Assembly: GCA_036556625.1 (NCBI GenBank)
Contig: DATBJC010000020.1
Span: 14,587 to 78,586, forward strand
Direction of reading: 5' to 3'
Length of the DNA: 64,000 nucleotides
Origin: Gemmatimonadales bacterium
Lineage (GTDB): Bacteria > Gemmatimonadota > Gemmatimonadetes > Gemmatimonadales > GWC2-71-9
The notes under the pieces were generated by a model. It ran no database searches. It saw nothing but the letters and a program-made list of their open reading frames with translations, and was not told the DNA's origin. Shown here piece after piece: positions 17,333 through 48,691 of the stretch. A program made the translations under genes and the position numbers. How positions within the stretch are numbered: position 1 is the stretch's first letter; every line of letters begins with the position of its first letter.

Positions 17333-17413
17333 CCATCAGTCGAAGGGCCGCCGGCCGGTCCCGAAGTCCGGGGCCGTCCGGCCGGCTCAGCACTTCCTTC
17401 CCACGAGGCTGCG

Positions 17414-21355: not shown

Positions 21356-21410
21356 TCGCCCACCGGGGGGGAGCGGGCACACCGCCCGCTCCTCCACAAC
21401 CAGGAGAAGG

Positions 21411-22532: not shown

Positions 22533-22553
22533 CAGAGCGGATTCAGGAAGACC

Positions 22554-24002: not shown

Positions 24003-24050
24003 CGGCGACGGATCGAATATCTCACAGCTCTCCGCCATGAGGGGTTCACT

Positions 24051-32358: not shown

Positions 32359-33887
32359 GCGGTCTCCCGGCGGAGCGTCGCGGGCGGGTAGTCGAGCCGG
32401 CGGTGGCCGCCTCGGCTCTCCCGCCGCCGCCGGGCGGCCTGGGTGATGAGTGTGGCGACCAGCAGCTGGTTGTGGGTGCGCCAGGCGGCGGCGGGGGTCT
32501 CCCTGGTCAGCCGCGCCAGCTCCTGCTCGGCGTGGAGCAACGAGGCTTCGGTTCGCTGGACTCCGACGTTGGTCGTCATGAGCTCGCGCATGGCGCGGCG
32601 GATTTCCCCGCATTCCGCGTCCGCGCCGGTCTCCTGTTGGAGCGGCCCATGGGGAAGCTGCGCGGTGCTCTCTACCGGCGGTCCCTCGGTCCAGCGGTCC
32701 GGCGGTCCGGCGGTCGTCCCGTCCGCCAAGGCATGCCCGGCCCGATCGGCGAACACCAGACCCTCGAGCAGGGAGTTCGAGGCCAGCCGGTTGGCGCCGT
32801 GCACTCCGGTGGAAGCGACTTCTCCCACGGCCCAGAGTCCGGGCAGCGTGGCGCGCCCCTCGAGGTCGGTGCGCACGCCGCCCATGGCGTAGTGCAGGGC
32901 CGGCGCCACCGGCAGCACGTCGCGCGACGGGTCGAGGCCGTGGCGCGCCAGGATCGCGGTGATGCCCGGGAACCGGCTCGAGAAGTCCTCGATCTCCCGC
33001 GCATCCAGCCAGGCTCCGCCGTCGGTGTCGGCCAGGGCGACGGCGCGGGCCAGCACGTCTCTCGGGGCGAGCTCGCCCCGGGGGTCGGCGTCCAGCGCGA
33101 ACCGGGTCCCATCGCGGTCGATCAGGGTCGCGCCGGCGCCGCGAACCGCCTCGGAGATCAGCGGCGCGGGATTGACGCCCGGCAACTTGAGTGCGGTGGG
33201 ATGGAACTGGAGGAACTCGATGTCCCGAAGCTGTGCCCCGGCGCGATGGGCCAGCGCCCAACCGTCCGCGGTGGCGACCTTGGGATTGGTGGTGATGGCA
33301 TAGAGCTGTCCCACGCCGCCGGTGGCGAGAACCACCGCCGTCGCCGGGATGGTCCGGCTCTGGTTCCCCCCGGTGAGCACCGCCACGCCGACGACCCGAC
33401 CCTCCGACGTGAGGATGGCGGTGACCTCGGTGTGCTCCATCAACTCGACCAGGGGATGCGAGCGCACCACCTGCGCCAGGCAGCCGATCAGCGCGGCGCC
33501 GGTCCGGTCACCCCCGGCGTGGATGATCCGAGGCCGGGTGTGCGCCGCCTCCAGCCCGAACCGGAGCTTGCCGTCGGGTCCCCGGTCGAACCGGGCGCCC
33601 AGCGCCAGAAGCTCGTAAATCCTTCCAGGGCCTTCACTTGTAAGGATGCGAACGGCTTCGGGATCGGCCAGGCCGTCGCTGGCGGCCATGGTGTCGGCGG
33701 CGTGCTGGCTGGGACTGTCTCCCGGTCCGAGGGCGACGGCGATCCCTCCCTGGGCCCAGGCGCTGGCGCTGTCGGCCAGCGTTTCCTTCGTGAGGACGAC
33801 AGCCCTCTGGCCTTCGGAAGCAAGCCTCCACGCGGTCCACAGGCCGGCGATGCCCGTACCGACGATGACGGGGCGGGAGGAGGTCAT
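32355..33887 (-). CDS. nadB: L-aspartate oxidase
   Basis: 'PVIVGTGIAGLWTA...SAWAQGGIA' forms the FAD fold. 'HYAMGGV' and 'LASNSLLEG' blocks are also present. The ATG is at 33885-33887. Confidence 0.9.
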   Translation of the reverse strand: MTSSRPVIVGTGIAGLWTAWRLASEGQRAVVLTKETLADSASAWAQGGIAVALGPGDSPSQHAADTMAASDGLADPEAVRILTSEGPGRIYELLALGARFDRGPDGKLRFGLEAAHTRPRIIHAGGDRTGAALIGCLAQVVRSHPLVELMEHTEVTAILTSEGRVVGVAVLTGGNQSRTIPATAVVLATGGVGQLYAITTNPKVATADGWALAHRAGAQLRDIEFLQFHPTALKLPGVNPAPLISEAVRGAGATLIDRDGTRFALDADPRGELAPRDVLARAVALADTDGGAWLDAREIEDFSSRFPGITAILARHGLDPSRDVLPVAPALHYAMGGVRTDLEGRATLPGLWAVGEVASTGVHGANRLASNSLLEGLVFADRAGHALADGTTAGPPDRWTEGPPVESTAQLPHGPLQQETGADAECGEIRRAMRELMTTNVGVQRTEASLLHAEQELARLTRETPAAAWRTHNQLLVATLITQAARRRRESRGGHRRLDYPPATLRRETA

Positions 33888-33916
33888 AGCAGGGAAATAT
33901 ACGGCGGACCGCCTCC

Positions 33917-35002
33917 CTACGTCCTCACCCTGATCAACAGCACCACTCCAGCAATCGCGAACACGATGTTGGGGATCCACGCCGCCAGGTCGGGATTGAC
34001 GACCCCGCCTGCTCCCACCGCCTTCATGATCTGGGTGAGCAGCAGGAAGATCACTGTAGTGCCGAGGCTGATGGCGATGCCGACCGCGGCCCCGGCGCGC
34101 GGGGAGGTGACTGCGAGCGGTGCCCCGAAGAGTGCGATGATGAAGCAGGTGACCGGGATCGCCACCTTGAGCGTGCGCTCGACCATCAGCTTGTTGGCGT
34201 CGTTGCCCGAGCGCTTCAGCGCGTCGACGTAGCGGCCCAGCTCGGCGTAGCGCATCTCGTCCGGCGCCTTCGATTCGGCCAGCAGGTCGGCGGGCGACTG
34301 GGTCAGCGCGCGAAGGCGCATGCTCCTGAACGAGAACATCGCCTGCCGTCCGGGGCCGGCGATGACCCGGCTGGCCCCGTTTCGCACCCGCCAGGAGCTG
34401 AGGGAATCGTCCCAGCTGGCGCTGTCGGCGGTGATCACCAGGTCCGGGTAGTCGAGCCCGGTCCCCTGGCGCTCGAACATCAGATGCTTCAGCTGCCGGT
34501 TGGCCACGTCGAGGGAGCGGATGGTGTACACCCAGCCCACGTCACCCCGGTACACGAAGTTGTAGCGAGTCCTGGTGGGCCGCGCCGCCTTGGCCTTCTG
34601 CAGCTCGAGCTGCTTGGCGGTGGCGCCGGGCGCGAGCTCCCCGACCACGAACGCCAGCCCCGACGCGGCCGCCGCGGCCACGAACAGCGGCAGCATCAGC
34701 CGGTGGAAGCTCTGGCCTCCAGCCTTGGCCGCCGTCAGCTCGGAGTGACGGCCCATGGCCCCTACGGTGAACACGGTGGCGAAGAGCACCGCCGCCGGCA
34801 TCACCAGGAACATGTTCTCCGGGACCGAGTAGACGTAGCTCCACGCGATCTCCCGGGTGGTGAGCCCGCGGTCGAGCAGCCGGTTCAGGGTATCGGTCAG
34901 ATTGATCAGGATGGATACGATCGGAAACCCGAGCGCGGTCAGGACGAAGATCCGGATCCAGCTCCCCAGAACGTAGCGGTCCAACGTGCTCATCGCCTTC
35001 AT
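33917..35002 (-). CDS. lptG: LptF/LptG-family LPS export permease
   Basis: YjgP/YjgQ architecture, with the N-terminal 'LDRYVLGSWIRIFVLTALGF', a periplasmic beta-jellyroll and C-terminal TM helices. There is an ATGA overlap with the upstream paralogue. Confidence 0.78.
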   Translation of the reverse strand: MKAMSTLDRYVLGSWIRIFVLTALGFPIVSILINLTDTLNRLLDRGLTTREIAWSYVYSVPENMFLVMPAAVLFATVFTVGAMGRHSELTAAKAGGQSFHRLMLPLFVAAAAASGLAFVVGELAPGATAKQLELQKAKAARPTRTRYNFVYRGDVGWVYTIRSLDVANRQLKHLMFERQGTGLDYPDLVITADSASWDDSLSSWRVRNGASRVIAGPGRQAMFSFRSMRLRALTQSPADLLAESKAPDEMRYAELGRYVDALKRSGNDANKLMVERTLKVAIPVTCFIIALFGAPLAVTSPRAGAAVGIAISLGTTVIFLLLTQIMKAVGAGGVVNPDLAAWIPNIVFAIAGVVLLIRVRT

Positions 35003-36603
35003 GCGGACGGCCTCACCGGGAAGGACCGGTGCCTGATCCGCCGCCAGAGATGGCGGATCGCGTCCACCACCTCCTGGAAGTCACCGCCGCGGGTGGAGCC
35101 CGACTCGCGGCTCACCCGGATCAGACCGAGCACGCCCACGATGGTGAGGATGATGTTGGGCGACCACATGGCCTGCCACGGTGTCACGAATCCGCGATCC
35201 GCCAGGCTCTCCCCGGCCGTGAGCCCCACATAGTGGACCGAGAAGACCAGGAGTCCACCGCCGATCACCAGCCCGATCCCGCCCCTGGGGAACCGGAGGG
35301 CCATCACGATCCCGATGATGACGAAGGAGATGCAGGCGAGGCTGATGGCCCACTTCTTATGGACCTCGACGGCGTACCGGGCCGCCCGCCGATCCGCGTC
35401 CCGGCCCCGGTCCAGGGCCGTCGCGGTGAGCGACCAGTTCGAAAGCTCCGGTTCCCGGAGTCCTGGACTACGAGGGCTGGGTACCGGGGGGCGCAGGGTC
35501 GGCGCTCCGGCCGGCTTCGTCTTCGGAGGCCTGACGATCCGGCCCTTGCCCTGTCCCGGCGCGCCGGCCTGTGCTCGACCCTGGGCGGGGGCGGCCTGTG
35601 CTCGTCCCTGGGCTTCGGCCGTCCTGGGAAGAACCAGACTCTGGAGCGACTGGAGCCAGCGGCAATAGGCCGGCGTCGCCTTGGCGGTCAGCGACGTATC
35701 AGCCATACCCCGTGGAGGGAGCGCCAGGAGGTTGCGAAGATCGCTCACGATCAGCTCGTGGCGGTCCCGGGCCGACTCGTGCTCCTCGCGTTCGGCATCC
35801 CGGATCACCTCGAGCATCTCGCAGGTGCTCATCTCGCGGTCGCCCCGAACCGCCTCGCTGGTGTTCCGCTCCAGCTCGTCGAAGACGTTCTTCACCCGGA
35901 TGTCGTTGACCTTGAAGTACGTCAACTGGAACCCGGTGGGCTCCACCGGTCGGTACTGGTGAATGCTCCCGTTGAACAGGCGGAGACTCAGATCGGTCTG
36001 GCCTTCGGCATAGCCCATCAGCCCGCTGTCGGCGTAGATGATCCGGCGGCTCGCGTCCCCGCCGACATCGTAGATGGTGACCTCCCGGAGGCGCCCGGTG
36101 GCGCCGTCGATCCGATTGGCGCGGAGGAAGTATTGGGAGGGCGGAACCTCATTGATCACCTGCTCCTGAAGCTCGAAGGTGGGCTTTTTCCGGCCGATGT
36201 CGATCAGCAGGGTTCTCAACCGGGCATTGCTCCGGGGCAGGATCTGATCCACGAAGGCAAAGTTGAAGGCCGACATGAACACGCCCCAGGCCAACACCGG
36301 GAGCAGGATCTGGTACACGCTGACCCCGCTGGCCCGCATCGCCGTGATCTCGTTGTCGGCCGCCAGGTGGCTGAAGGCATAGAGCACGGCCAGGAGCACC
36401 GCCATCGGGAGGGTCATCGCCACGATGAACGGGATGCTCAGGGCGAAGACCTCCACGATCACCGTCCAGGGGAGGCCTTTGCCCACCAGCGACCCGAACT
36501 TCTTCGCGATCTGGCTCAACAGCATCAGGCTGGTGAGCGCGGTGAGCGCGAAGAGGAAGGGGGCCGCCAGTTGGCGGAGCAGGTAGCGACTGAGCAGGTT
36601 CAC
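34999..36603 (-). CDS. lptF: LptF/LptG-family LPS export permease with about 130-aa low-complexity insertion
   Basis: 'LLSRYLLRQLAAPFLFALTAL' is the family N-terminus. The insert contains an Ala/Gln/Pro/Arg-rich tract encoded partly by a 27-nt direct repeat. Confidence 0.78.
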   Translation of the reverse strand: MNLLSRYLLRQLAAPFLFALTALTSLMLLSQIAKKFGSLVGKGLPWTVIVEVFALSIPFIVAMTLPMAVLLAVLYAFSHLAADNEITAMRASGVSVYQILLPVLAWGVFMSAFNFAFVDQILPRSNARLRTLLIDIGRKKPTFELQEQVINEVPPSQYFLRANRIDGATGRLREVTIYDVGGDASRRIIYADSGLMGYAEGQTDLSLRLFNGSIHQYRPVEPTGFQLTYFKVNDIRVKNVFDELERNTSEAVRGDREMSTCEMLEVIRDAEREEHESARDRHELIVSDLRNLLALPPRGMADTSLTAKATPAYCRWLQSLQSLVLPRTAEAQGRAQAAPAQGRAQAGAPGQGKGRIVRPPKTKPAGAPTLRPPVPSPRSPGLREPELSNWSLTATALDRGRDADRRAARYAVEVHKKWAISLACISFVIIGIVMALRFPRGGIGLVIGGGLLVFSVHYVGLTAGESLADRGFVTPWQAMWSPNIILTIVGVLGLIRVSRESGSTRGGDFQEVVDAIRHLWRRIRHRSFPVRPSA

Positions 36604-36621
36604 ACGACCTAACTTGTAGAT

Positions 36622-36649
36622 TTGTAAGGAGTTGTTAGCTTATTATATT
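36622..36649 (+). promoter_or_regulatory. Sigma-70-like promoter candidate for the sprA-like gene
   Basis: TTGTAA (36622-36627), a 16-nt spacer, then TATATT (36644-36649). It sits in the only strongly AT-rich stretch of the lptF/sprA divergent gap. Confidence 0.35.
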
Positions 36650-36694
36650 GTCCGGGTTTCCCATTCTCAAGCCGTCTTCCTCAGCTCCAACAGA

Positions 36695-39600
36695 GTGGCG
36701 CGCCCTCTTCTCACTCTAAGCTGGCTGTGCCTGCTGGTCACGGCTCCCCTGGCCGGCCAGACCCCGACAACCGCCGATACGACCGGGCCGGGCTCTCGCC
36801 TTCGATTCCTGACCAGCCCGTTTCGTCTGGCCGAGCCGGCCGCGCTGCGCGCGCCCTGGCTGGGGGCCCCGCGGTTGGGTCCGACCGGGGCGGCGGAGCG
36901 TTGGGACAGCCTCCTGGCCACCTCGCTGCAAGTCACCCGCCAGGAGCGGGCCCTGGGATACCGGATGCTCAACCTCTACGGAACGGCTCCGGTGCCGGTG
37001 GAGCAGGTCGCGACGGCAGAGGAGGACGAGCAGCGTCGGGGGCTGTTCGGGATCGCCCGCGACAAGGCCGACATCAACATGGACGGCCAGGTCCGGCTCG
37101 AGTTCCGCACCGACCGCCTGCGCAACGAGCGATGCAGTCCCGCGCTGCTGCTGGATCCCAATTCCGGTTGCCGGGGTGGCTTCAGGCCGCCCCGCCTGGA
37201 CAACCAGGTGAATCTCCGGGCCGGCGGCGTGCTGGGCCGACGGGTCCACCTCAACGTGGACTACGACTCGGAGCGGGACTTCGTCGCCAACAACGATGTG
37301 CAGGTGTACTACGAAGGGTTGGAAGACGAGATCATCCGCCGGATCGAGGTCGGCACCGTCCAGTTCCAGCCCCCACCCTCGCGATTCATCACCGCCGCCA
37401 TCCCCACCAACAACTTCGGCGTCAACGCGACCTTCGAGGTGGGGCGGGTGCAGCTCCAGACTCTGGCCGCCACCCAGAAGGGGAGCCAGGTGGCGGAGCG
37501 GGTGTACCAGATCGGCCAGACCACCAGCCAGCCACAGACCAAGCAGGTCCGGGACCTCGACTTCGAAACAGGCCGGTTCTTCTGGGTGGTGGATCCCACC
37601 GGGGTTCCAGGCTTTCCCGACCTCGACATCCTGAACCTGGATCCCACGGTGCTGCCGGCGAACCTGCGACCCGACCAGGTCCGGGTCTACCGCTATCGCG
37701 CCGCGCTCAACCAGTCCAACTCGCAGGCCAACCTGGCGGGCATCCGGGCACTGGCCCGCAGCAGCAACGGGGTCCAGACCTACGGCCCGGTGCGGTGGGA
37801 GCTGCTGATCCAGGGCACCGATTACCACCTGGACCCCTCGGGGCTCTGGCTCGCGCTCGGCACCAAGCTGGACCAGAACGACTTCCTCGCGGTCAGCTAC
37901 ATCGCCGACGACGGCTCGCTGGTGGGGAGCTTTCCCTCTCAGGATCGGCCCGAGGCGGGAGACAGCCTGCGGCTGATCGTGGCGCCGCAGCAGGACCCGT
38001 CCCAGGTCACCTTCAACCACGAGATGCGGCAGATCTACCGGGTGGCGGGATCCGATCTGGACCCGGCGTCGCTCGAGGTTCGTCTCTCGGTCAACCAGTC
38101 GGAGCGGCCGCTGTCGGGAGGCACCACCTATCTCGCCGCCCTGCGGCTGGCGATCCCGACCGACCCCAACATCTTCGACCGGGAGAACCGGCTCTTCCCC
38201 CGGGCGCAGGAGCCGCAGGCGGGGACGGTGCTCAACGAGTCGTACATCATTTATCCCCACCTGCGGCCTTTCGCCGATTCCACCCGGCTCACCCCGGCGG
38301 AACGGAACGACTCGCTGTACCAGAAGCCCCTCTTCCTGCTGAACCAGGGGCCGGCGGCGAAGTTTCAGCTGCGGCTCCACTACAACAGCACCGGCGGAGG
38401 CGACCGGTCCAGCCTGGCACTCGGCGCGTTCCAGCTGCGCAAGGGAAGCGAGCAGGTGTTGCTGGGAGGGCGCCGGCTCGAGCGCGACGTGGACTACACC
38501 ATCTCCTACGAGTCGGGGCAGGTCACCTTTCTCAATCCGGAGTCGTTGTTCGGTACCGGTGCGGCTCAGGTCACCGTGCGGTTCGAGGAGCAGGGCATTT
38601 TCGCGATCGCGCCCACCTCGATCTTCGGGCTTTCGACCCGCTATTCATTGGGTAATGTCGGCTCGGTCAACTTCATCGGCATGTACCAGAAGGAGTCCAG
38701 CGCCTTCAACCGGCCGCCGCTCGGGTTCGAGGCCACCGCGAATCTGATCACCGGCATCAACACCGATCTCAAGTTCCGCTCGGACGGATTGAGCCGGCTC
38801 CTCAGCGGGCTCACCAGCCGGCCCGCCGTTGCTCCCTCCCAGATCAACCTCAACGCCGAATTCGCCCTGACCAAGCCGGACCCCAACCGGTCGGGGCAGG
38901 CCTACATGGAGGAGTTCGAGAGCGAGGCGGGCGTGCCCCTCTCACTGGCGGAAGCCGCCTGGGAGTTCGGCAGCGGACCGGGCAGCCCGCTGGGCGCGGA
39001 GAGCTTCGGCTTTGCCGGCGGGTTCCTCCCGGACGACGCGGTGGCGCTCACCTGGCAGAACCTGGTGCCGGTCGGGAACACCGGTCAGGCGCTGGAGATC
39101 CGCCCGGAGGACATCGACACCCTGATCCGCATCGTGGGCCGGGGCGAGCGTCTGGAGACCACGCTCTTCATGACCCTGCACGCCGACACCGCGGGAGGCG
39201 TGGTCCAGCGCAACAATGCCTCGCGCTGGAGCCTGCCCCGGCGCGACTTCCGTCCCCGGTGGCGCTCGATGGTCACGCCGCTCAGCACCACGGGCATCGA
39301 TCTCACCCGGGACGAGTACCTCGAGTTCTGGGTGTTTCACCCCGCGGGCCGGAGCTCCGACTCGGCCGGGGTGCGGCTGATCTTCGACCTCGGCACGGTG
39401 GACGAAGACGCGGTGGGCGTGGCACCCGAGAGCCTGACCGTGGCGGGCAGCGATACCAGCTACACCGGGCGCCAGCTGATCGGCACCGGCCTGCTCGACA
39501 CCGAGCGGAGCGACCTGGACATCTTCAACGCCGAAGTGGACGACATCGGGATCCTGGGCGACAGGCCGCCCAGGATGATCCGCTCGGACGGGGCTGTGGT

Positions 39601-42600
39601 CGGCGACCTGGCGCTCTGCGAGCGCTTCCTGAGCAACGCGGTGCCGGTGTTTCCCTGGGGCGACCTCAGCGGTCGCTGCACCAACGGCAACGGGATTCTC
39701 GACACCGAGGATCTGGACGCGGACAACGTGCTCAATGCCAAGGGCGCCAACGAGAACGTCTTCCGCTACGTGGTCCAGCTTCGCCCGGAAGACCAGCACT
39801 TCGTGCGAACCGGTCAGGGCCTCATGCCCGGCTGGGAGCTGTATCGGGTCCCCATCCGCACCCCGGACGCCACCATCGGCACGCCCAATCTCCGGCTGAT
39901 TCAGCATCTGCGGGTCACGGTGGCGGCGCCGGCCGACGCCGGCGGCCCGGACCCGGTCGCCCGGTTCGCGCTGGCCCGCATGCGGCTGGTCGGTTCCTCC
40001 TGGACCCGCCGGGCGGAACGGCCGATCGCCGGTCTTGCCGGATCGGTGGCCAACCCCATCGGCGATGTCATCGCCTCGGTAGTCTCCACCGAGAACAGCG
40101 CCGACCTGGGGTACGAGTCCCCTCCCGGCGTGGTCGAAGCCGTGCAGCGGCGAGACGGCGACCAGGAATCGTTCGGCACCCAGATCAACGAGAAGTCACT
40201 CCGCATCGTCGCCCGGGGCCTGGAAACGGGCGACCGGGCCGAGGCGTTCCTCCGCTTTCCGGTGACTCCGCAGAACGCGCTGAGCTACCGCCAGCTCAGG
40301 GTCTGGATGCGGGGCCGCGGGCCCGGCTGGGAGGAGAACGATCTCCAGGCCTTCCTCAAGGTGGGCAGCGACGACCGCAACTTCTACCTGTACCGGGCAC
40401 CCGCCCGCTCCCGGACCTGGGAGCCGGAATTCGTCATCGATCTGGAGGTGTGGCGCGCGCTCCGGGCCCGGCTGGAACAGCAGCGACTGAGCGGACCGCC
40501 GGTGGTGGATCCGGCCTGCGGGGTGCCCGATCCGAATGTCTACGTGACCTGCCGGGGTCCCTATCTGGTGTACAGCGCCGACCCCGGAGTCAACCCTCCG
40601 AACCTGGCGGCGATTCAGGAGCTTTCCGCGGGCATCCTGCGGGTCGCGTCGTCGGTCGTCATTACGGACGCCGAGCTCTGGGTGGACGATATCCGGCTCA
40701 GCAACCCGGTGTCCGAGCTGGGCACCGCGATGGCGGTGGACGCGCGAATCGTCGCCAGCGACGTGGGCAACATGTTCGTGTCCTACACCCGGCAGAACGG
40801 CCAGTTCCGCCAGATCAACGAGGACCCCAGCTACCGCGGCACCGGTGCCTTGCAGGTCACGTCCGGCTGGCAGCTCGATCGGTTCCTCCCCACCTGGCTG
40901 GGCCTCTCCATTCCGCTCAACGTGAATTACACTCGCGCGAACGTGGATCCGGAGCTGCTCACCGGCACCGATGTGAGGGGCGACGCCCTGCCCGGCTTGC
41001 GACGACCGAGCTCGAGCACCCAGAACTACACCCTCGCGATCCGCCGGAGTCAGAAGGGCACCGATTTTCTCACCAAGGCGTTGGCCGATCCGCTGTCGCT
41101 TCGAGCCAACCTGGTCAAGGGACGGACCCGGAGCGAGTTCAGCGACGCCACCTCCGACGCGCGCTCGGTCGCCCTGGGCTACAACCTCCAGATGCAGCGG
41201 CGGGGCATCGGGCTGCCCTTCGGCGGCCTGGTGGGCGGTCTGCCGGACTGGATCAAGAACAGCAGCGCAGGCAAGGGACTGAGCTCGGCAAAGTTCAGCC
41301 TGGTCCCTTCGAGCCTGCGGCTGAGCAGCGGGCTCAGCCGGAACGAAGCCGCCTACTTCTCCTTCGGCGTGCCGATCGCCCGGCCGGCGGACTCGCTGGT
41401 GCGGTCCACCCTCTCGCTCACCCACCTGTGGCAGAACTCGGCCGGCATGACGTACCAGCCGCTGGGGATGCTGTCGGTGAACGTGGACCTCAACAGCACG
41501 CGCGACCTGCGGGTCTACCCCGATTCCAGCCCTCTGGGCCGGCTGGCGTTTGCCGAGCGGAAGCTCTTTCTGGGTATCCCCGTCGGCGTGGAGCGCGACC
41601 GCAACCTGACCACTTCGCTGGCCCTCACTCCGGCCATCAACTCCTGGCTGCGGCCCCGGTTCACCACGGGGAGCGGATTCATTCTCTCCCGGACGCTCAA
41701 CAGCCGCTCGCCGGTCCGCGAGTTCGAGGACAGCGGCGCGTTCATCCTCCCGCAGACGCTCAACAACCGACGGACCCGCGAGCTGGGCCTCTCGGTGGAT
41801 CTGGGCCGCGCGTTCCAGCAGCTGTTCAACGACAGCAGCACGGTGGGCAAGGCGCTGTCGCGCTTCCGGCCGGTGGACCTCAGCTCCGGCCTCACCCGCA
41901 CCTCGACCTACAATCTCGCCGCCTTCGACCCGGGCCTGAAGTACATGCTGGGCCTGGGCGGCCGCGAGAGCTTCCTCTTTCAGGAGCGATCCACCGCGGT
42001 GAATGCGTCGGAGACCCGCACCGCGACGATCGGATCGGGCGCTGACCTACCCTTCGGATTCTCCACCACGATGTCGTACTCGCTCACTCGGACGGAGACC
42101 TTCCGCCTGGTCGGGGACGGCTTCGCCGAGACCGTGCTGCGGCAGCGGGAGTGGCCGTCGGCGACGGTCCGATGGAACCGGGTATTCACCAAAGGCCCGC
42201 TGGTGACCGTGAGCGCCGCCTTCGGGGTCCGCCGCCGGGAGGGCACCTCTCAGCAGCTCAGTGCCGGGGGCGAGGGGCTGGGCGCCGCCAGCGCCACCGT
42301 CTCGTACTCGCTCACGCCGGACCTCCAGTTGACCCTCCGCAACGGGATGAGCTTCTCGACCGGACTCTCCAGTCGCGACCAGCGGACCGAGACCAACGGG
42401 AACGCGACCCTGCTGGATCAGGACGACATCACCGGCACCTTCAGCTACGCCTTCCGGCTGCCCACCTCCATCAGCCGCACCCGCAAGCTGATCCGCTCCT
42501 CGGTGACGGTCTTCAGCTCCAGCGTCCGCACCTGCCTGCTGACGGTGCGCGACCCGGAGTGCGAGACCGTATCCGACCTCCGCCGGCGGGAGATCCAGAG

Positions 42601-42751
42601 CGGGATCGACACCGACCTGATGCAGATGCTGACCGCGGGCCTCCAGTTCGGCTACTCGATCAACGACGTGCGTCACCTGGACGGACGCACGTCGCAGATC
42701 TTCCTCCAGCTGTCGTTCCAGCTGTCGCTGTTCGCGGAAGATTACCGGTGA
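36695..42751 (+). CDS. sprA: SprA-like giant outer-membrane protein (T9SS translocon family)
   Basis: 2018 aa from GTG 36695, which gives the signal peptide MARPLLTLSWLCLLVTAPLAG|Q. 'VNLRAGGVLGRRVHLNVDYDSERDF...QVYYEGLEDEIIRRIEVGTVQF' matches my memory of the conserved SprA block (...YTGxEDEIIQKIEAGNVS...). It is beta-rich throughout. Confidence 0.65.
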   Translation: MARPLLTLSWLCLLVTAPLAGQTPTTADTTGPGSRLRFLTSPFRLAEPAALRAPWLGAPRLGPTGAAERWDSLLATSLQVTRQERALGYRMLNLYGTAPVPVEQVATAEEDEQRRGLFGIARDKADINMDGQVRLEFRTDRLRNERCSPALLLDPNSGCRGGFRPPRLDNQVNLRAGGVLGRRVHLNVDYDSERDFVANNDVQVYYEGLEDEIIRRIEVGTVQFQPPPSRFITAAIPTNNFGVNATFEVGRVQLQTLAATQKGSQVAERVYQIGQTTSQPQTKQVRDLDFETGRFFWVVDPTGVPGFPDLDILNLDPTVLPANLRPDQVRVYRYRAALNQSNSQANLAGIRALARSSNGVQTYGPVRWELLIQGTDYHLDPSGLWLALGTKLDQNDFLAVSYIADDGSLVGSFPSQDRPEAGDSLRLIVAPQQDPSQVTFNHEMRQIYRVAGSDLDPASLEVRLSVNQSERPLSGGTTYLAALRLAIPTDPNIFDRENRLFPRAQEPQAGTVLNESYIIYPHLRPFADSTRLTPAERNDSLYQKPLFLLNQGPAAKFQLRLHYNSTGGGDRSSLALGAFQLRKGSEQVLLGGRRLERDVDYTISYESGQVTFLNPESLFGTGAAQVTVRFEEQGIFAIAPTSIFGLSTRYSLGNVGSVNFIGMYQKESSAFNRPPLGFEATANLITGINTDLKFRSDGLSRLLSGLTSRPAVAPSQINLNAEFALTKPDPNRSGQAYMEEFESEAGVPLSLAEAAWEFGSGPGSPLGAESFGFAGGFLPDDAVALTWQNLVPVGNTGQALEIRPEDIDTLIRIVGRGERLETTLFMTLHADTAGGVVQRNNASRWSLPRRDFRPRWRSMVTPLSTTGIDLTRDEYLEFWVFHPAGRSSDSAGVRLIFDLGTVDEDAVGVAPESLTVAGSDTSYTGRQLIGTGLLDTERSDLDIFNAEVDDIGILGDRPPRMIRSDGAVVGDLALCERFLSNAVPVFPWGDLSGRCTNGNGILDTEDLDADNVLNAKGANENVFRYVVQLRPEDQHFVRTGQGLMPGWELYRVPIRTPDATIGTPNLRLIQHLRVTVAAPADAGGPDPVARFALARMRLVGSSWTRRAERPIAGLAGSVANPIGDVIASVVSTENSADLGYESPPGVVEAVQRRDGDQESFGTQINEKSLRIVARGLETGDRAEAFLRFPVTPQNALSYRQLRVWMRGRGPGWEENDLQAFLKVGSDDRNFYLYRAPARSRTWEPEFVIDLEVWRALRARLEQQRLSGPPVVDPACGVPDPNVYVTCRGPYLVYSADPGVNPPNLAAIQELSAGILRVASSVVITDAELWVDDIRLSNPVSELGTAMAVDARIVASDVGNMFVSYTRQNGQFRQINEDPSYRGTGALQVTSGWQLDRFLPTWLGLSIPLNVNYTRANVDPELLTGTDVRGDALPGLRRPSSSTQNYTLAIRRSQKGTDFLTKALADPLSLRANLVKGRTRSEFSDATSDARSVALGYNLQMQRRGIGLPFGGLVGGLPDWIKNSSAGKGLSSAKFSLVPSSLRLSSGLSRNEAAYFSFGVPIARPADSLVRSTLSLTHLWQNSAGMTYQPLGMLSVNVDLNSTRDLRVYPDSSPLGRLAFAERKLFLGIPVGVERDRNLTTSLALTPAINSWLRPRFTTGSGFILSRTLNSRSPVREFEDSGAFILPQTLNNRRTRELGLSVDLGRAFQQLFNDSSTVGKALSRFRPVDLSSGLTRTSTYNLAAFDPGLKYMLGLGGRESFLFQERSTAVNASETRTATIGSGADLPFGFSTTMSYSLTRTETFRLVGDGFAETVLRQREWPSATVRWNRVFTKGPLVTVSAAFGVRRREGTSQQLSAGGEGLGAASATVSYSLTPDLQLTLRNGMSFSTGLSSRDQRTETNGNATLLDQDDITGTFSYAFRLPTSISRTRKLIRSSVTVFSSSVRTCLLTVRDPECETVSDLRRREIQSGIDTDLMQMLTAGLQFGYSINDVRHLDGRTSQIFLQLSFQLSLFAEDYR

Positions 42752-42816
42752 GAGAGGAGCTGGTCGGCCAGACAGCTTGACAGCCAGACCGCTTCGGAGC
42801 TTTCGTCCCGTCCACC

Positions 42817-43725
42817 TTGCGTCGCTTTCTCCTGATCCTCTCCCTCGCCGCGCTGAATGCCTGCGGCGACAAGCCGCCGCCCCGGGAGTTCGACGGGACG
42901 TCGGCCTTCAAGTACCTCGAGCAGCAGCTGACCTTCGGGTACCGGATACCGGGCACCGATGAGCACCGCCGGATGGCGGCGTGGCTCGACAGCATGGTGC
43001 GGGCGCGGGTCGACTCGGTGATCACCCAGCGCTGGACTCACGTCACCGCCGAGGGTGACTCGCTGGATCTCCAGAATGTCATCGCTCGCATCAACCCGGC
43101 TGCGGAGAAGCGGATCCTTTTTTTGGCCCACTGGGACACCAGGCCGGTCACCGACGGCAAGCAGTCTCCCGACTCGACCAAGAAGGTCATGGGGGCCAAC
43201 GATGGGGCCTCCGGCGTGGCGCTGTTGCTGGGCGTGGCCGATGTGCTCAAGCGGGCGCCGCCCGGGCCGGACGTCGGGGTGGACCTGCTCTTCACCGACG
43301 GCGAAGACTACGGCGATTTCGACAAGGTCATCGATGTCCTGATCGGTGCCCGCTACTACGCCCAGCACCAGCCGCCGGGGCCGAAGCCGCTCTACGCCGT
43401 GCTCTTCGATCTGGTCGCGGACAAGGATCTGCAGATCTACCAGGAGGGCAACTCGGTGACCGGCGCGCCGGAGGTAGTGAACCTGGTGTGGGACGTAGCG
43501 CGAGATCTGGGGTACGGAAAGATCTTCGTAGATACGCCGGGGTACGTGCTGATCGACGATCACGTGGAGCTGCAGAAGGGAGGGATCCGCGCCATCGACG
43601 TGGTGGACTTCAACTATCCCCCCCATCACACGCCGTTCGATACCATCGACAAGGTGAGCGCCCAGAGTCTTCAGATCGTGGGTGACGTCGCGATGGCCCT
43701 GGTGCGGCGCGAGGGTACCACCTAG
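42817..43725 (+). CDS. M28-fold lipoprotein, glutaminyl-peptide cyclotransferase-like
   Basis: The lipobox is 'LAALNACG'. The blocks 'FLAHWDTRP', 'GANDGASGVALLL', 'LLFTDGEDYG', 'IDDHVEL' and 'HHTPFDTIDKVS' parallel the Bacteroidota animal-type QC pattern (AHWDSRP / GANDGASG / DDH / WHT..D). Confidence 0.68.
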   Translation: MRRFLLILSLAALNACGDKPPPREFDGTSAFKYLEQQLTFGYRIPGTDEHRRMAAWLDSMVRARVDSVITQRWTHVTAEGDSLDLQNVIARINPAAEKRILFLAHWDTRPVTDGKQSPDSTKKVMGANDGASGVALLLGVADVLKRAPPGPDVGVDLLFTDGEDYGDFDKVIDVLIGARYYAQHQPPGPKPLYAVLFDLVADKDLQIYQEGNSVTGAPEVVNLVWDVARDLGYGKIFVDTPGYVLIDDHVELQKGGIRAIDVVDFNYPPHHTPFDTIDKVSAQSLQIVGDVAMALVRREGTT

Positions 43726-43809
43726 CCGGAACCGTCCCGCCGGCGGAATCGCACCGGCCCGCGGGAAACCGCTGCGCGGCGGATTCAGCCAGTGCGTTAC
43801 CCTCGGGTC

Positions 43810-44481
43810 ATGTCGGCCACCGAGCGACGCGCCCTCCTGCTCCTGCTCTCCCTCGGGCTTGCCGGCCAGGGCATCCGGTGGTGGGCCACCCGGCCGGGAG
43901 AGGCGCCGGGGCAGATCGAGCTGCTGGCGGCACTCCCTCCCAAGTCTCCGGCGGCCCATCGCGACAGCATCCTCGCCCTGGCCCGGCCTCTCGCGCCCGG
44001 CGAGCGTATCGATGCCGACCAGGCTACGCCGGCCGAGCTGGCTCGGCTCCCGCGGGTCGGCCTGGCGCTTGCCAAGACCATCGTCGCGGATCGTGAGGCC
44101 CGAGGACCGTTCGGCGGCCCTGAGGGGCTCGATCGGGTACGGGGCATCGGGCCCGGACTCCTGGCCGCCATCGGGCCCCACCTGAGGTTCTCCGGCCCCA
44201 AGGGAGTGCCAGCATCCGGGCAGTTCGCCCGACCCGGTGCCGACTTGGCCGGGGGGCCGACTCCCTCCCGGGCAGGCACCACCCCTCCCCCCGTAAATCT
44301 CAATTCGGCGTCGGTTTCCGAGCTGGACCGGCTTCCGGGAATCGGCCCGGCGCGCGCGGCGGCGATTTTGCAGGAGCGCGAAGCCCGGGGGCCGTTTGCG
44401 TCGGTCGAAGCCTTGTCCCGTGTTCCCGGGCTGGGGCAGTCGGCCATCGCCCGGCTGCGCGATCAGGTGGTGGTCGAATGA
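43810..44481 (+). CDS. comEA: ComEA-like helix-hairpin-helix DNA-binding protein (two HhH modules)
   Basis: It has an N-terminal TM anchor. 'ELARLPRVGLALAKTIVADREARGPF' and 'ELDRLPGIGPARAAAILQEREARGPFASVEAL' are duplicated ComEA-type HhH motifs. Confidence 0.75.
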   Translation: MSATERRALLLLLSLGLAGQGIRWWATRPGEAPGQIELLAALPPKSPAAHRDSILALARPLAPGERIDADQATPAELARLPRVGLALAKTIVADREARGPFGGPEGLDRVRGIGPGLLAAIGPHLRFSGPKGVPASGQFARPGADLAGGPTPSRAGTTPPPVNLNSASVSELDRLPGIGPARAAAILQEREARGPFASVEALSRVPGLGQSAIARLRDQVVVE

Positions 44482-44560
44482 GGGGCGGGCGGCCTGTCGT
44501 CGCCCAGCCCGGCTACCGATACTGGCCCAATTAACCCAACACTTCTCCAGCCACGAGATC

Positions 44561-46276
44561 ATGGCGACCGCTGCTGCCGGAAGTAACGGCGATCAGCTCG
44601 GTGAGGTGCTGCTGCGTGAAGGCCTCCTCACGCGTGAGCAGCTCATCGCGGCGAAAGCCGACCAGAAGACCAGCAAGCATCGCCTGGGCTACGTCCTGGC
44701 AAAGCTGGGCATGGTCCCCGAGCTGGAGATCACCAAGATCCTGGCCCGGCAGTACCGGATGCCCGCGGTGGACCTCTCCCGCTTCGAGGTGGATCCCCGA
44801 ATCCTCAAGCTGGTCCCTGCCGACATGGCCTCGAAGGGCGTGGTGCTCCCGCTCAAGCGGGAGGGGCGGACCCTCACCGTCGCCATGGCCGACCCCACCG
44901 ACCTCGGCCTGCTGGAAGATCTCAAGTTCATCACCCGGTTCGATCTCTTCCCGGTGCTGGCCGGGGAATTCACCTTGCGCTCCCTGATCGAAAAGCACTA
45001 TGCCAGCGATCAGCAGGAGCTGCAGACCCTCCTCAAGGACATGGAGGCCACCGGGGAAGACGTCGAGGTCGTCGAGGAGCAGGAAGAGGAGACGGTCACC
45101 CAGGCGCAGATCGAGGACGCCCCGGTCGTCAAGCTGATCAACGGGCTCCTGATCGATGCGGTCCGGCGGGGCGCCAGCGACATCCACATCGAGCCCTTCG
45201 AGCACGAGATTCGGGTGCGCTACCGAGTGGACGGCGCGCTGCTCGAGATCATGCGGCCGCCGCTCAAGATGAAGGCTGCGCTCACCTCTCGCGTCAAGAT
45301 TCTCTCCCAGCTCAATATCGCCGAGCGGCGCGTGCCGCAGGACGGCCGGCTCAAGCTGAAGATGGGGAACCGGGTCATCGACTTCCGCGTCTCCACCCTG
45401 CCGGTGCTGTTCGGCGAAAAGATCGTGCTCCGAATCCTCGACAAGGGCAACCTGACGCTCGACCTCACCAAGTTCGGCTTCGAGCCCAAGGCGGAAAAGG
45501 ATCTCATGAAGGCGATCCTGAACCCCTACGGCATGGTGCTGGTCACCGGGCCCACCGGTTCGGGCAAGACGACCACGCTGTACTCGGCGCTCTCCCGGGT
45601 CAACACGCCGGAAGTGAACATCATGACGGCGGAAGACCCGGTGGAGTACAACCTGATGGGCATCAATCAGGTGCTGATCCGGAACGAGATCGGGCTCACC
45701 TTCGCCGCGGCGCTCAAGGCGTTCCTGCGGCAGGACCCGAACATCATCATGATCGGCGAGATCCGCGATCTGGAAACCGGCGGCATCGCCATCAAGGCGG
45801 CGCTCACCGGCCACCTGGTGCTCTCCACCCTGCACACCAACGACGCGCCGAGCACCATCACCCGTATGATCGACATGGGCATCGAGGCGTTCAACGTGGC
45901 GAGCGCGGTGAACGTGGTGGTGGCCCAGCGGCTGGTGCGCCGAGTCTGCAAGGACTGCAAGACTTCGCACAAGTACACCGACGTGGAATTGCACTCCCTG
46001 GGCACAGAAATTGACATCCTCCGCGGCCTACCGTTCATGAAGGGCACGGGTTGCGACACCTGTAGTGGCACCGGCTACAAGGGCCGAGCGGGTCTCTACG
46101 AGGTCATGGCCCTGAGCCCGGAGCTGCGCCGGATGATCCTGCGGGGCGCCTCGGTCGCCGAGTTGCGAGACCAGGCGGTCTCCGAAGGGATGCTCACCCT
46201 GCGCATGGATGGCATGAAGAAGATCGAGCGCGGAACCACCACCCTCGAAGAAGTGGTCAAGGAGACAGCCGGATGA
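44561..46276 (+). CDS. pilB: Type IV pilus assembly ATPase PilB (GspE family)
   Basis: The N-terminal domain is MshEN-type 'LGEVLLREGLLTREQL'. It has Walker A 'GPTGSGKTTTL', Asp/His boxes and the tetracysteine 'CKDC...CDTC'. The true ATG is at 44561. Confidence 0.9.
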   Translation: MATAAAGSNGDQLGEVLLREGLLTREQLIAAKADQKTSKHRLGYVLAKLGMVPELEITKILARQYRMPAVDLSRFEVDPRILKLVPADMASKGVVLPLKREGRTLTVAMADPTDLGLLEDLKFITRFDLFPVLAGEFTLRSLIEKHYASDQQELQTLLKDMEATGEDVEVVEEQEEETVTQAQIEDAPVVKLINGLLIDAVRRGASDIHIEPFEHEIRVRYRVDGALLEIMRPPLKMKAALTSRVKILSQLNIAERRVPQDGRLKLKMGNRVIDFRVSTLPVLFGEKIVLRILDKGNLTLDLTKFGFEPKAEKDLMKAILNPYGMVLVTGPTGSGKTTTLYSALSRVNTPEVNIMTAEDPVEYNLMGINQVLIRNEIGLTFAAALKAFLRQDPNIIMIGEIRDLETGGIAIKAALTGHLVLSTLHTNDAPSTITRMIDMGIEAFNVASAVNVVVAQRLVRRVCKDCKTSHKYTDVELHSLGTEIDILRGLPFMKGTGCDTCSGTGYKGRAGLYEVMALSPELRRMILRGASVAELRDQAVSEGMLTLRMDGMKKIERGTTTLEEVVKETAG

Positions 46277-47415
46277 GCTTCAATCTGCGGGCGCTGCTGG
46301 AGGAGATGATCCAGAAAGAGGCCTCGGACCTGCACATCACCACGGGCGAGCGGCCTAAGTTGCGCATCGATGGAGACATCACCGACAGCGCGGTGACCGA
46401 GGTCCTCACCCCCAAGGACACGCTGCATCTGGCCTACTCGGTCCTGACCGAAAACCAGAAGAAGCGCTTCGAGACCGAGGACGAGCTCGACTTCTCCTTC
46501 GGGATTCAGAACTTGGCCCGGTTCCGCGGCAACGTGTACAAGCAGCGGGGCTGCGTGTCCATGGCAATCCGCATGATTCCTTTCAACGTGCGGACTTTCC
46601 AGGAACTTGGCCTGCCCCCGATCATGGCCAAGCTGGCCGAGCGTCCGCGGGGTCTGATCCTGGTCACCGGGCCCACCGGCTCAGGCAAGAGCACCACGCT
46701 GGCCGCAGTGATCGACAAGATCAACAAGGAGCGGAAGGGTCACATCATCACGGTGGAAGACCCGATCGAGTTCATTCACCGCCACCAGTCCTGCATCGTC
46801 AACCAGCGCGAGATCGGCACCGACACCAAGAGCTTCGCCACCGCGCTCAAGTATGCCCTGCGTGAGGACCCGGACGTGATCCTGGTGGGTGAGATGCGGG
46901 ACCTGGAGACCATCGCCGCGGCGCTCACCATCGCGGAGACCGGCCACCTGGCCCTCGCCACCCTGCACACCAATTCGGCGGCGGAATCGATCAACCGGAT
47001 CATCGACGTCTTCCCGTCCAACCAGCAGTCCCAGGTGCGGGCCCAGCTCGCCTTCGTGCTGGAGGGCGTGGTCACCCAGACGCTACTCCCCAAGTTGCGT
47101 GGCCGCGGCCGGGTCATGGCGTGCGAGATCATGGTCGCCACGCCGGCCATCCGGGCCCTCATCCGCGACGACAAGATCCACCAGATCTACTCTGCCATGC
47201 AGGCTGGCAAGAAGCACGGCATGCAGACGATGAACGACTCGCTCTACCAGCACTACACCAACAAGGAAGTGAGCCAGGAGGAGTGCGAGCGGGTGTCGCA
47301 CGACCCCAAGGAATTCCTTCGCATGATCGGGGTCACCCCGATGGAGGAGCAGGAGTTCGGCACCAACGGCGCCGCCTCCGAGAAGGGGCGGCCGTCAGGA
47401 GCGGTAAGGCGCTAG
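46273..47415 (+). CDS. pilT: Twitching-motility retraction ATPase PilT
   Basis: 'ASDLHITTGERPKLRIDG', Walker A 'GPTGSGKSTTL' and 'GHLALATLHTNSA' are present. There is an ATGA overlap with pilB. Confidence 0.92.
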   Translation: MSFNLRALLEEMIQKEASDLHITTGERPKLRIDGDITDSAVTEVLTPKDTLHLAYSVLTENQKKRFETEDELDFSFGIQNLARFRGNVYKQRGCVSMAIRMIPFNVRTFQELGLPPIMAKLAERPRGLILVTGPTGSGKSTTLAAVIDKINKERKGHIITVEDPIEFIHRHQSCIVNQREIGTDTKSFATALKYALREDPDVILVGEMRDLETIAAALTIAETGHLALATLHTNSAAESINRIIDVFPSNQQSQVRAQLAFVLEGVVTQTLLPKLRGRGRVMACEIMVATPAIRALIRDDKIHQIYSAMQAGKKHGMQTMNDSLYQHYTNKEVSQEECERVSHDPKEFLRMIGVTPMEEQEFGTNGAASEKGRPSGAVRR

Positions 47416-47488
47416 CCCGCCGCTCCGCACAGCACCGCCCGGCGGAGTGGAGCAGTGGGGTGGGTCCGTCTTTCTAGGAGATCACCGA

Positions 47489-48691
47489 ATGCCAATGTTC
47501 GAATACACCGCCCGGGCGCCGAGCGGCCAGATCCAGAAGGGCCAGCTCGACGTCGCGAGCAAGGACGATGTCAGCGCGTACCTGCGCAAGAACCGGCTGA
47601 TCCTGGTGAGCGTGCGCGAGCAGCCCAAGCAGATCAACATCAGCTTCGGCGCTCAGCGCATCAAGACCCGCGACATCGTCATCTTCACCCGGCAGTTCGC
47701 CACGATGATCAACGCGGGCCTGCCGCTGGTGCAGTCGCTGAACATCCTGGCCCAGCAGACCGAGAACAAGGCGCTCAGGGACGTCACCAAGGCGGTGGTC
47801 TACGACGTCGAGTCGGGCCACACCCTGGCCGACGCGTTCTCCAAGCACCCCAAGGCGTTCACCGATCTCTACGTCAACATGGTCGCCGCGGGTGAGGCGG
47901 GCGGTATCCTGGATACCATCCTGCTTCGGCTGGCCACCTTCCTGGAAAAGAACGACGCCCTGGTCCGCAAGGTGAAGGGCGCCATGGTCTATCCCGGCGT
48001 CATCATCACGGTGGCGGCCGTCGCCATCGCCGTGCTGCTGGTGTTCGTGATCCCGACCTTCGAGAGCATGTTCGCCTCCGCCGGCATGGAGCTGCCGCTG
48101 CCGACCCGGATTGTGATCGGGATGTCCAACCTGCTCATCTCCTACTGGTGGGCCGGGCTGCTGGGCATCGCCGCGGTTCTCTTCGCCATCCGGCAGTACT
48201 ACAACACCCCCGATGGCCGGAAGCAGATCGACGGGGCGCTGCTCCGGGCGCCGGTGCTGGGCGACCTGCTGCGCAAGTCGGCGGTGTCGCGCTTCACCCG
48301 GACGCTAGGCACCCTGGTGAGCTCGGGCGTATCCATCCTGGACGGCCTCGAGATCACCGCCAAGACCGCCGGCAACCGGGTCATTCACGACGCGGTGATG
48401 GAGTCGCGCCAGTCGATCGCCGGCGGTGAGACGATCGCGGCGCCGCTGGAGAAGTCGAAGGTGTTCCCGCCCATGGTGATCAGCATGATCGCCGTCGGCG
48501 AGCAGACCGGCGGCCTGGACGAGATGCTGTCCAAGATCGCGGACTTCTATGACGAGGAAGTGGACGTGGCGGTGAGCGCGCTGCTCTCGCTCATGGAGCC
48601 GGCGATGATCGTGATCCTGGGCGTGATCGTGGGCGGCATGGTGATCGCCATGTACCTGCCGATCTTCGATATGATGAACGCGGTGCAGTAG
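47489..48691 (+). CDS. pilC: Type IV pilus platform protein PilC (GspF family)
   Basis: It has two GspF repeats (FTRQFATMINAGLPL... and FTRTLGTLVSSGVSI...). The ATG at 47489 is preceded by AGGAG. Confidence 0.9.
   Translation: MPMFEYTARAPSGQIQKGQLDVASKDDVSAYLRKNRLILVSVREQPKQINISFGAQRIKTRDIVIFTRQFATMINAGLPLVQSLNILAQQTENKALRDVTKAVVYDVESGHTLADAFSKHPKAFTDLYVNMVAAGEAGGILDTILLRLATFLEKNDALVRKVKGAMVYPGVIITVAAVAIAVLLVFVIPTFESMFASAGMELPLPTRIVIGMSNLLISYWWAGLLGIAAVLFAIRQYYNTPDGRKQIDGALLRAPVLGDLLRKSAVSRFTRTLGTLVSSGVSILDGLEITAKTAGNRVIHDAVMESRQSIAGGETIAAPLEKSKVFPPMVISMIAVGEQTGGLDEMLSKIADFYDEEVDVAVSALLSLMEPAMIVILGVIVGGMVIAMYLPIFDMMNAVQ

Follow-up and report, generated by a model that had tools for sequence, protein, structure and literature searches.

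Why does a gene for a lipoprotein resembling glutaminyl cyclase (QC) lie directly behind sprA, which encodes the SprA/Sov-type outer-membrane translocon of the secretion system of type IX (T9SS), and why do several exported proteins encoded nearby appear to begin with glutamine? Both questions arise from a 64,000-nucleotide stretch of a Gemmatimonadales genome (GenBank assembly GCA_036556625.1, contig DATBJC010000020.1, positions 14,587 to 78,586; 68% G+C), to which, in its entirety, we refer as the window. An original prediction, made from the letters of the window, had tied them to the ‘Q-rule’ of Bacteroidota, by which many substrates of signal peptidase I (SPI) begin with a Gln that is cyclised to pyroglutamate, and had taken the gene adjacency to suggest a functional link between the cyclase and the secretion pore. 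We think it likely that the gene encodes a general QC at the periplasmic face of the membrane that serves a Q-rule beyond Bacteroidota and is co-transcribed with sprA; SprA would be among its substrates, but the enzyme would not be a dedicated part of the secretion apparatus.

The QC gene (42,817 to 43,725, forward strand) encodes 302 amino acids, opens with TTG, the only start codon upstream of its signal peptide, and has a coding-type G+C content by codon position (0.68/0.41/0.87). The motif blocks that had first suggested a cyclase are all in place: AHWDTRP (residues 104–110), GANDGASG (126–133), DDH (247–249) and HHTPFD (270–275). Although the protein matches the Pfam family Peptidase_M28 (PF04389, E = 2e-31), the evidence supports the prediction that it is of the QC type and not a generic aminopeptidase, its top sequence and fold matches all being proven or re-annotated QCs. 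Its close homologues are labelled Gemmatimonadales. The best sequence matches in the Protein Data Bank (PDB) have E values of 5e-46 to 2e-43: TfQC (6qro), PgQC (6qql and 7cje) and BtQC (4fuu and 7d1d), from Tannerella forsythia, Porphyromonas gingivalis and Bacteroides thetaiotaomicron, respectively. A profile of 13 orthologues improved the QC matches to E = 2.5e-60. When an AlphaFold2 model of the protein (pLDDT 82, pTM 0.86) was compared with the PDB using Foldseek, ranks 1 to 50 were all QCs; TM scores to BtQC, TfQC and PgQC were 0.82–0.87, with 7d1d, 4fuu and 6qro highest ranked (0.83–0.87), and the matches include two solved type II QCs from outside Bacteroidota (Fimbriiglobus, 7d1b; Acidobacteriales, 7d18). 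These comparisons indicate that the similarity to QCs is not due to chance, and they add the protein to an already known family.

The predicted active site agrees with this assignment. The putative zinc ligands D129, D164 and H271 align with PgAsp149, PgAsp183 and PgHis299 and with human D159, E202 and H330. D129–G130, within GANDGASG, corresponds to PgAsp149–Gly150, and E163–D164, within GEDYG, to PgGlu182–Asp183 and human E201–E202; D198 and D247 correspond to human D248 and D305, and no PgQC equivalent was mapped for either. With roles taken from published work (PMC7948796, PMC5837995), E163 is a candidate proton shuttle, and the presence of D198 and D247 would fill out the carboxylate network. 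Bacteroidal QCs carry an Asp-Gly after the first ligand (a trans peptide, with no second zinc site) and a Glu-Asp pair, whereas aminopeptidases carry Asp-Asn and Glu-Glu instead (PMC7948796). Both elements of the bacteroidal signature are kept here, and the zinc-binding and catalytic residues are unchanged across 15 QCs that represent seven or more lineages. Huang et al. are said to have proposed, in J Mol Biol in 2021, that a hydrogen-bond network of carboxylic acids (HsE201, HsD248 and HsD305) separates QCs from M28 peptidases. The N terminus, MRRFLLILSLAALNAC, reads as a lipoprotein signal peptide (residues 1–15) with the lipobox L-N-A-C and a predicted lipidated Cys16 that is invariant among 13 orthologues; PgQC is itself an inner-membrane lipoprotein (PMC5837995).

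The predicted enzyme shares its fold with the bacteroidal type II QCs PgQC (PG2157/PGN_0202), TfQC, PiQC, BtQC and PdQC (TM 0.82–0.87; 32–34% identity over the Foldseek alignments), as well as the Asp/Asp/His zinc triad, including the ‘bacteroidal-specific’ Asp of Glu-Asp, the Asp-Gly motif, the lipoprotein signal peptide and the company of exported proteins that start with Gln. It differs in its host, a member of Gemmatimonadota and not of Bacteroidota, and in His270, which replaces PgTrp298. Its gene also lies directly behind sprA, unlike the sampled QC genes of Bacteroidota, which follow cysS in Chitinophaga and secG in a Muribaculaceae MAG (metagenome-assembled genome). With the animal type II QCs (human QPCT/QPCTL) it has in common the M28 alpha/beta fold, a single zinc site and four equivalent residues (E163 = E201, D198 = D248, D247 = D305 and H271 = H330), but identity is only about 20% and TM about 0.65–0.74, Glu202 is replaced by Asp and the Ser after the first zinc ligand by Gly; and whereas the human enzymes are secretory or Golgi-resident, the window protein is predicted to be lipid-anchored and periplasmic.

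The cleavage contexts quoted in support of the original prediction are present in the translated window: PLAG/QTPT (SprA), LAAA/QGED (PorV family), ALLG/QGST (TonB-type barrel), RGEA/QRAW (a beta-lactamase-fold protein), AAAAMQSD (a GWxTD protein) and AEA/KPR (a 1,313-amino-acid protein). SprA (36,695, a likely GTG start, to 42,751, forward strand; the longest open reading frame begins at a TTG at 36,632) matches TIGR04189, ‘T9SS outer membrane translocon Sov/SprA’ (E = 6.4e-150; 501 bits, cutoff 200), and PF14349 (SprA_N); its predicted signal peptide, VARPLLTLSWLCLLVTAPLAG, would be cut before QTPT. The PorV/PorQ-family outer-membrane protein (21,411 to 22,532, forward strand; NF033709, 138.7 bits, cutoff 90) and the TonB-type barrel (13,973 to 17,332, forward strand; CarboxypepD_reg and Plug domains in Pfam) are likewise predicted QC substrates, with sites SLAAA/QGED and ATALLG/QGSTGK.

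To place the Gln, we relied on its conservation among orthologues, counting the first Gln after the hydrophobic core in N termini that differ in sequence, drawn from 80 Gemmatimonadales loci surrounding the QC gene and, from metagenomes, 80 loci surrounding that of the PorV family. An automatic site picker with a −3/−1 weight rule was dropped because it misplaced several sites, including those of SprA and the TonB-type barrel; orthologue alignment and a ‘first polar residue’ count took its place. The +1 Gln is conserved in all three families, to a degree that chance does not explain. It was found in 36 of 36 distinct SprA N termini, preceded by Ala or Gly in 33 (the other three have an earlier Gln inside the signal peptide), in 54 of 55 from the PorV family (53 with Ala or Gly before it) and in all five from the TonB-type barrel (Ala or Gly in five). 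Various residues follow the Gln (A, T, D, N, G, S, V or E), and this variation excludes a cleavage site of the proteobacterial A-Q-A/ type and puts the Gln at +1. The GWxTD protein (22,554 to 24,002, forward strand) had been called ambiguous and truly is: its orthologues retain a Gln close to where the signal peptide ends, preceded in many by D, P, F, Y, R or M, and we left the family unassigned because such residues are unacceptable to SPI at −1. Either these proteins are cleaved elsewhere, with the Gln in the mature domain, or they are processed in an unusual way.

We then clustered the signal-peptide-like N termini from these loci into families and read the plausible ones by hand. Among 13 unambiguous SPI families, Gln stands at +1 in 11 and not in two (binomial P = 1e-6 against a 20% background), with two further families ambiguous; seven of the 11 are unrelated to the T9SS. 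The evidence for +1 Gln is thus strong for individual families and suggestive for the proteome. ComEA-like proteins, encoded behind the QC gene, have G-Q at the end of a short hydrophobic N terminus in 21 of 22 Gemmatimonadales orthologues, but were not counted as Gln-first because distant Gemmatimonadota orthologues have a plain membrane anchor that lacks the Gln. Outside Gemmatimonadales, SprA starts A/Q or G/Q in loci from Zixibacteria, Glassbacteria, Calditrichota and distant Gemmatimonadota, as do further exported proteins encoded in those loci; SprA of one 65% G+C lineage (L180) has no Gln at the predicted site.

The combination of Gln after the SPI site with a lipoprotein QC resembles the Q-rule described for Bacteroidetes by Bochtler et al. 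(2018, PMC5837995) and Mizgalska et al. (2023, PMC10653852). In Bacteroidetes a mean of 71% of SPI substrates have Gln at +1, whereas other groups remain below about 20% (PMC5837995), and the preference is strongest for outer-membrane and T9SS proteins (PMC5837995, PMC10653852). The rule was called Bacteroidetes-specific, with a few outliers left unexplained, Ignavibacterium (77%) among them; that analysis did not extend to Gemmatimonadetes, Calditrichota or Zixibacteria (PMC5837995). The pattern described here appears in Gemmatimonadota, Calditrichota and Zixibacteria, as estimated from about 15 families rather than from proteomes.

The sprA and QC genes are separated by 65 nucleotides (42,752 to 42,816, forward strand). 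Across 61 orthologous loci the median spacer is at most 69 nucleotides, and frequently it is zero or the genes overlap. In a consensus scan of positions 36,000 to 45,000, the only two promoter-like sites form a divergent pair in the gap between lptF and sprA (36,622 to 36,670): TTGTAA-16-TATATT on the forward strand (36,622–36,649) and TTGAGA-17-TATAAT on the reverse strand (36,670–36,642). The same scan found no terminator-like site in this interval, for which shuffled sequences gave an expectation of 3.6. Because no promoter-like or terminator-like match falls between them, sprA and the QC gene are probably carried on one transcript.

The adjacency is kept in relatives of the window genome. 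Among the 80 Gemmatimonadales loci, 75 had enough upstream DNA to judge, and in 72 of these sprA is directly upstream of the QC gene on the same strand. In the other three, all metagenome-assembled genomes (MAGs; L057, L066 and L073), sprA is missing from this place and the QC gene comes directly after lptF, across a gap of about 80–150 nucleotides; these may represent a clade that lost or moved sprA. Their LptF proteins are more divergent (59–61% identity). The larger block sprA–QC–comEA–pilB–pilT–pilC is conserved in Gemmatimonadota.

Beyond this order we looked up twelve genomic contexts with diverse QC representatives. We found the pair in two distant Gemmatimonadota (L081 and L082), in Glassbacteria (L083), in Zixibacteria (L175; murB–sprA–QC–HHH_3), in Calditrichota (L179; lptG–lptF divergent from sprA–QC–prmA, an lptFG/sprA–QC arrangement in common with the window) and, as sprA–QC–prmA, in the 65% G+C lineage of P0169 and L180/L181. 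In a homologue search the nearest relatives of P0169 and P0383, which share a lineage, were metagenome proteins, and names from Poribacteria and Calditrichaeota appeared at greater distance. The two genes overlap in the Glassbacteria locus, and overlap or abut in those of Zixibacteria and L082; L082 (GCA_046262075.1, 9,067–11,053) has two tandem QC-like lipoprotein genes after sprA, whose products of 315 and 350 amino acids both keep all the catalytic residues. Among the same twelve contexts the pair is missing from Chitinophaga (L177; QC after cysS), from a Muribaculaceae MAG (L178; QC after secG), from an Armatimonadota MAG (L087) and from contigs L085 and L176. Outside Gemmatimonadota, then, sprA and QC stay on the same strand, with gaps from overlap to 146 nucleotides, while the neighbours change, and the pair is therefore conserved in its own right. 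Such adjacency shows co-inheritance and probably co-transcription, and not a mechanistic link to secretion.

Several details of the loci that lack the pair may be recorded here. In the Muribaculaceae MAG (L178, 2,671–4,148), secG, directly upstream of the QC gene, is itself an export-pathway gene, and in L176 (10,001–13,982, a 69% G+C contig) the export-pathway gene lgt lies two genes downstream; the QC-like protein of L176 has an SPI-type rather than a lipoprotein-type signal peptide. In L085 the QC gene directly follows a nadB-like FAD_binding_2 gene.

We propose the following scheme. A zinc-dependent type II QC would be a Sec substrate, would carry lipid at Cys16 and would be anchored so as to face the periplasm, where SPI would cut most exported proteins after Ala or Gly and so expose Gln as the first residue. 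The cyclase would turn this Gln into pyroglutamate, with zinc held by D129, D164 and H271, protons shuttled by E163 and the carboxylate network completed by D198 and D247. By analogy with P. gingivalis, the cap would shield proteins of the periplasm and the outer membrane against aminopeptidases (PMC5837995, PMC10653852). The substrates would include SprA, the PorV-family protein and the TonB-type barrel. The QC gene would be co-transcribed with sprA from the promoter region in the lptF–sprA gap, and the two would form an old envelope-biogenesis gene pair found in several phyla of the FCB group.

A number of observations weigh against this scheme. The 1,313-amino-acid protein, which has a weak match to the T9SS C-terminal domain, never has Gln at +1; it had been listed as lacking one, and across orthologues the sites consistently read A/KPRPG and variants. 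The roughly 15 families were sampled from syntenic loci and not from a whole proteome, and the assignment of cleavage sites relied on visual inspection and a rough rule of our own rather than on SignalP. A high-G+C control, 300 kb of a Ralstonia megaplasmid processed in the same way, gave Gln in about two to three of ten; it is small and noisy, is full of non-signal peptides and is inflated for Gln by proteobacterial AQA/ sites, so that it serves as a rough control only. In M28 enzymes, sequence alone cannot fully tell QC from aminopeptidase activity (PMC5837995). Finally, the equivalent of PgTrp298 is His270, which is neither the QC nor the aminopeptidase residue. Trp precedes the His ligand in QCs (PgTrp298/HsW329) and Tyr does so in aminopeptidases. 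The position holds Trp in 12 of 14 other lineage representatives and in about half of the close orthologues, and His in another Gemmatimonadota representative (P0123); residue 270 is a variable second-shell position and not a catalytic one.

How far does the persistence of the pair argue for something tighter than a shared transcript? The broadest alternative is that sprA–QC is an ancestral two-gene operon of the FCB superphylum, which Bacteroidota have broken up and which survives in Gemmatimonadota, Calditrichota, Zixibacteria and one or more further lineages, and that capping arose with the type IX translocon and its outer-membrane partners and is mechanistically required for their biogenesis or stability. 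We consider this joint reading unlikely; were it true, the ‘Bacteroidetes Q-rule’ would be a T9SS-linked, superphylum-wide trait. The cross-phylum persistence of the pair goes beyond block synteny and leaves some room, though we think it unlikely, for a real dependence of SprA or PorV biogenesis on the cap. The corresponding explanation of the adjacency, that the translocon can be assembled or run only with pyroglutamate on SprA, PorV or cargo and that the genes stay together for this reason, seems to us improbable. In its favour are the retention of the pair in Gemmatimonadetes, Glassbacteria, Zixibacteria, Calditrichota and the P0169/L180 lineage despite different flanks (murB, prmA, lptFG and comEA–pilBTC), the overlapping or abutting genes in several lineages and the near-invariant Gln of SprA and the PorV family. 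The striking co-occurrence of T9SS with high Q-values (PMC5837995) and the 86% of P. gingivalis T9SS proteins that are Gln-positive (PMC10653852) point the same way.

Against it, and in favour of a general enzyme that is not a T9SS component, stand four observations. The QC gene persists next to lptF with no sprA at that position in the three Gemmatimonadales MAGs. Bacteroides species, a notable exception in having no T9SS core proteins (PMC11285876), nonetheless have QCs; that of B. thetaiotaomicron is active (7d1d) and is among the best structural matches to the window protein. Unrelated exported proteins also carry Gln at +1, and published experiments led to the conclusion that cyclisation is not what controls T9SS targeting (PMC5837995). 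Translocon dependence is further opposed by the QC genes of Chitinophaga and Muribaculaceae, which lie away from sprA, and by the fact that the only window protein with a C-terminal-domain-like tail, the 1,313-amino-acid protein, has no Gln. We therefore retain the general QC as the preferred explanation.

It is very improbable that the M28 protein is instead an ordinary envelope-anchored aminopeptidase that trims peptides or proteins, with the Gln pattern unrelated. The Pfam family name, the His at residue 270 and the first deposition of several close PDB entries as ‘leucine aminopeptidase’ could be read this way, and all five two-zinc positions of true aminopeptidases (H105, D129, D164, D198 and H271) are occupied here. 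Yet experiments and structures have since led to the re-annotation of those entries as QCs (PMC7948796 and the title of 7d1d), and PgQC has no aminopeptidase activity (PMC5837995). The di-zinc M28 aminopeptidases, such as those of Streptomyces griseus (SgAP) and Vibrio/Aeromonas (AAP) and Bacillus YwaD, share the superfamily, the overall fold and the metal-ligand positions, but they bind two zinc ions, carry Asp-Asn and Glu-Glu motifs where the window protein has Asp-Gly and Glu-Asp (PMC7948796), and remove N-terminal residues rather than cyclise them. They match the window protein at E = 5.5e-5 to 3e-4, and the nearest of them in the PDB sequence search, 2ek8 (E = 5.5e-5), is some 40 orders of magnitude worse than the QCs. 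The invariant +1 Gln in the products of neighbouring genes also fits a QC.

Passive synteny without co-regulation, in which lptFG–sprA–QC–comEA–pilBTC is merely a slowly rearranging segment, fits the order Gemmatimonadales, where all seven genes of the block are syntenic in nearly every locus and the pair is no more conserved than its neighbours, but is extremely improbable, given the sprA–QC gap free of promoter and terminator matches and the pair that remains on one strand outside Gemmatimonadota; we rejected block synteny as sufficient by itself, since the genes that flank the pair change from phylum to phylum.

A literature search found no report of the Q-rule in Gemmatimonadota, Calditrichota or Zixibacteria, and none of a conserved sprA–glutaminyl cyclase gene pair. 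The possible occurrence of T9SS components in Gemmatimonadetes had already been noted (PMC11285876). The literature regards the Q-rule and its cyclase as a peculiarity of Bacteroidetes and, in oral pathogens, as a species-selective target for drugs; the study that defined the rule noticed that it tracks with type IX secretion, but found no mechanistic link (PMC5837995). In at least three named groups of phylum rank besides Bacteroidetes, a cyclase gene is fixed directly behind that of the translocon and exported proteins are Gln-first, which gives this co-occurrence a concrete genomic basis, and the pair offers a testable handle, namely whether SprA or PorV needs the pyroglutamate cap. The relevance to T9SS and the Q-rule is argued here by genomic inference; on that footing, many annotations as ‘M28 family peptidase’ in these phyla probably denote glutaminyl cyclases, and N-terminally blocked envelope proteins should be expected over a wider range, which would matter for proteomics and signal-peptide predictors in soil and sediment phyla.

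The neighbouring genes were mapped from G+C content by codon position and from Pfam and NCBIfam searches. A five-gene cluster on the forward strand (13,973–25,079) comprises the TonB-type barrel, the 1,313-amino-acid protein, the PorV/PorQ-family protein, the GWxTD protein and a lipoprotein with a weak PPC domain, in an order kept in many soil metagenome contigs (L089–L168). Of the outer-membrane and T9SS-related proteins in the window, it is the 1,313-amino-acid protein (17,414–21,355, forward strand) that clearly breaks the Gln pattern; its orthologues (L092–L166) have a conserved (K/E)PRPG-like motif immediately after the signal peptide. It has a sub-threshold match to the T9SS type A C-terminal domain (TIGR04183; 20.5 bits, cutoff 23) and a match to the PorZ tail, no peptidase domain was detected in it, and, lying next to PorV, it might be a PorU/PorZ-like surface component. 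No PorK, PorL, PorM or PorN was found in the window, beyond which the remainder of the T9SS was not searched for.

Divergent from sprA, on the reverse strand, are lptF (34,999–36,603) and lptG (33,917–35,002), with PF03739 matches of E = 1.7e-66 and 1.6e-86 for lptG and lptF, respectively. Downstream of the QC gene, the ComEA-like helix-hairpin-helix protein (43,810 to 44,481, forward strand; PF12836 HHH_3, E = 5.6e-33, and TIGR00426) has an N terminus that, in Gemmatimonadales, resembles a cleavable signal peptide more closely than it does the membrane anchor usual for ComEA, and its gene is followed by pilB, pilT and pilC (44,561–48,691, forward strand). On the reverse strand at 30,449–33,980 lie nadC, nadA and nadB (quinolinate phosphoribosyltransferase, quinolinate synthase and L-aspartate oxidase), in a region with no clean frame by third-position G+C, where mechanically called open reading frames overlap and run long and start codons need care.

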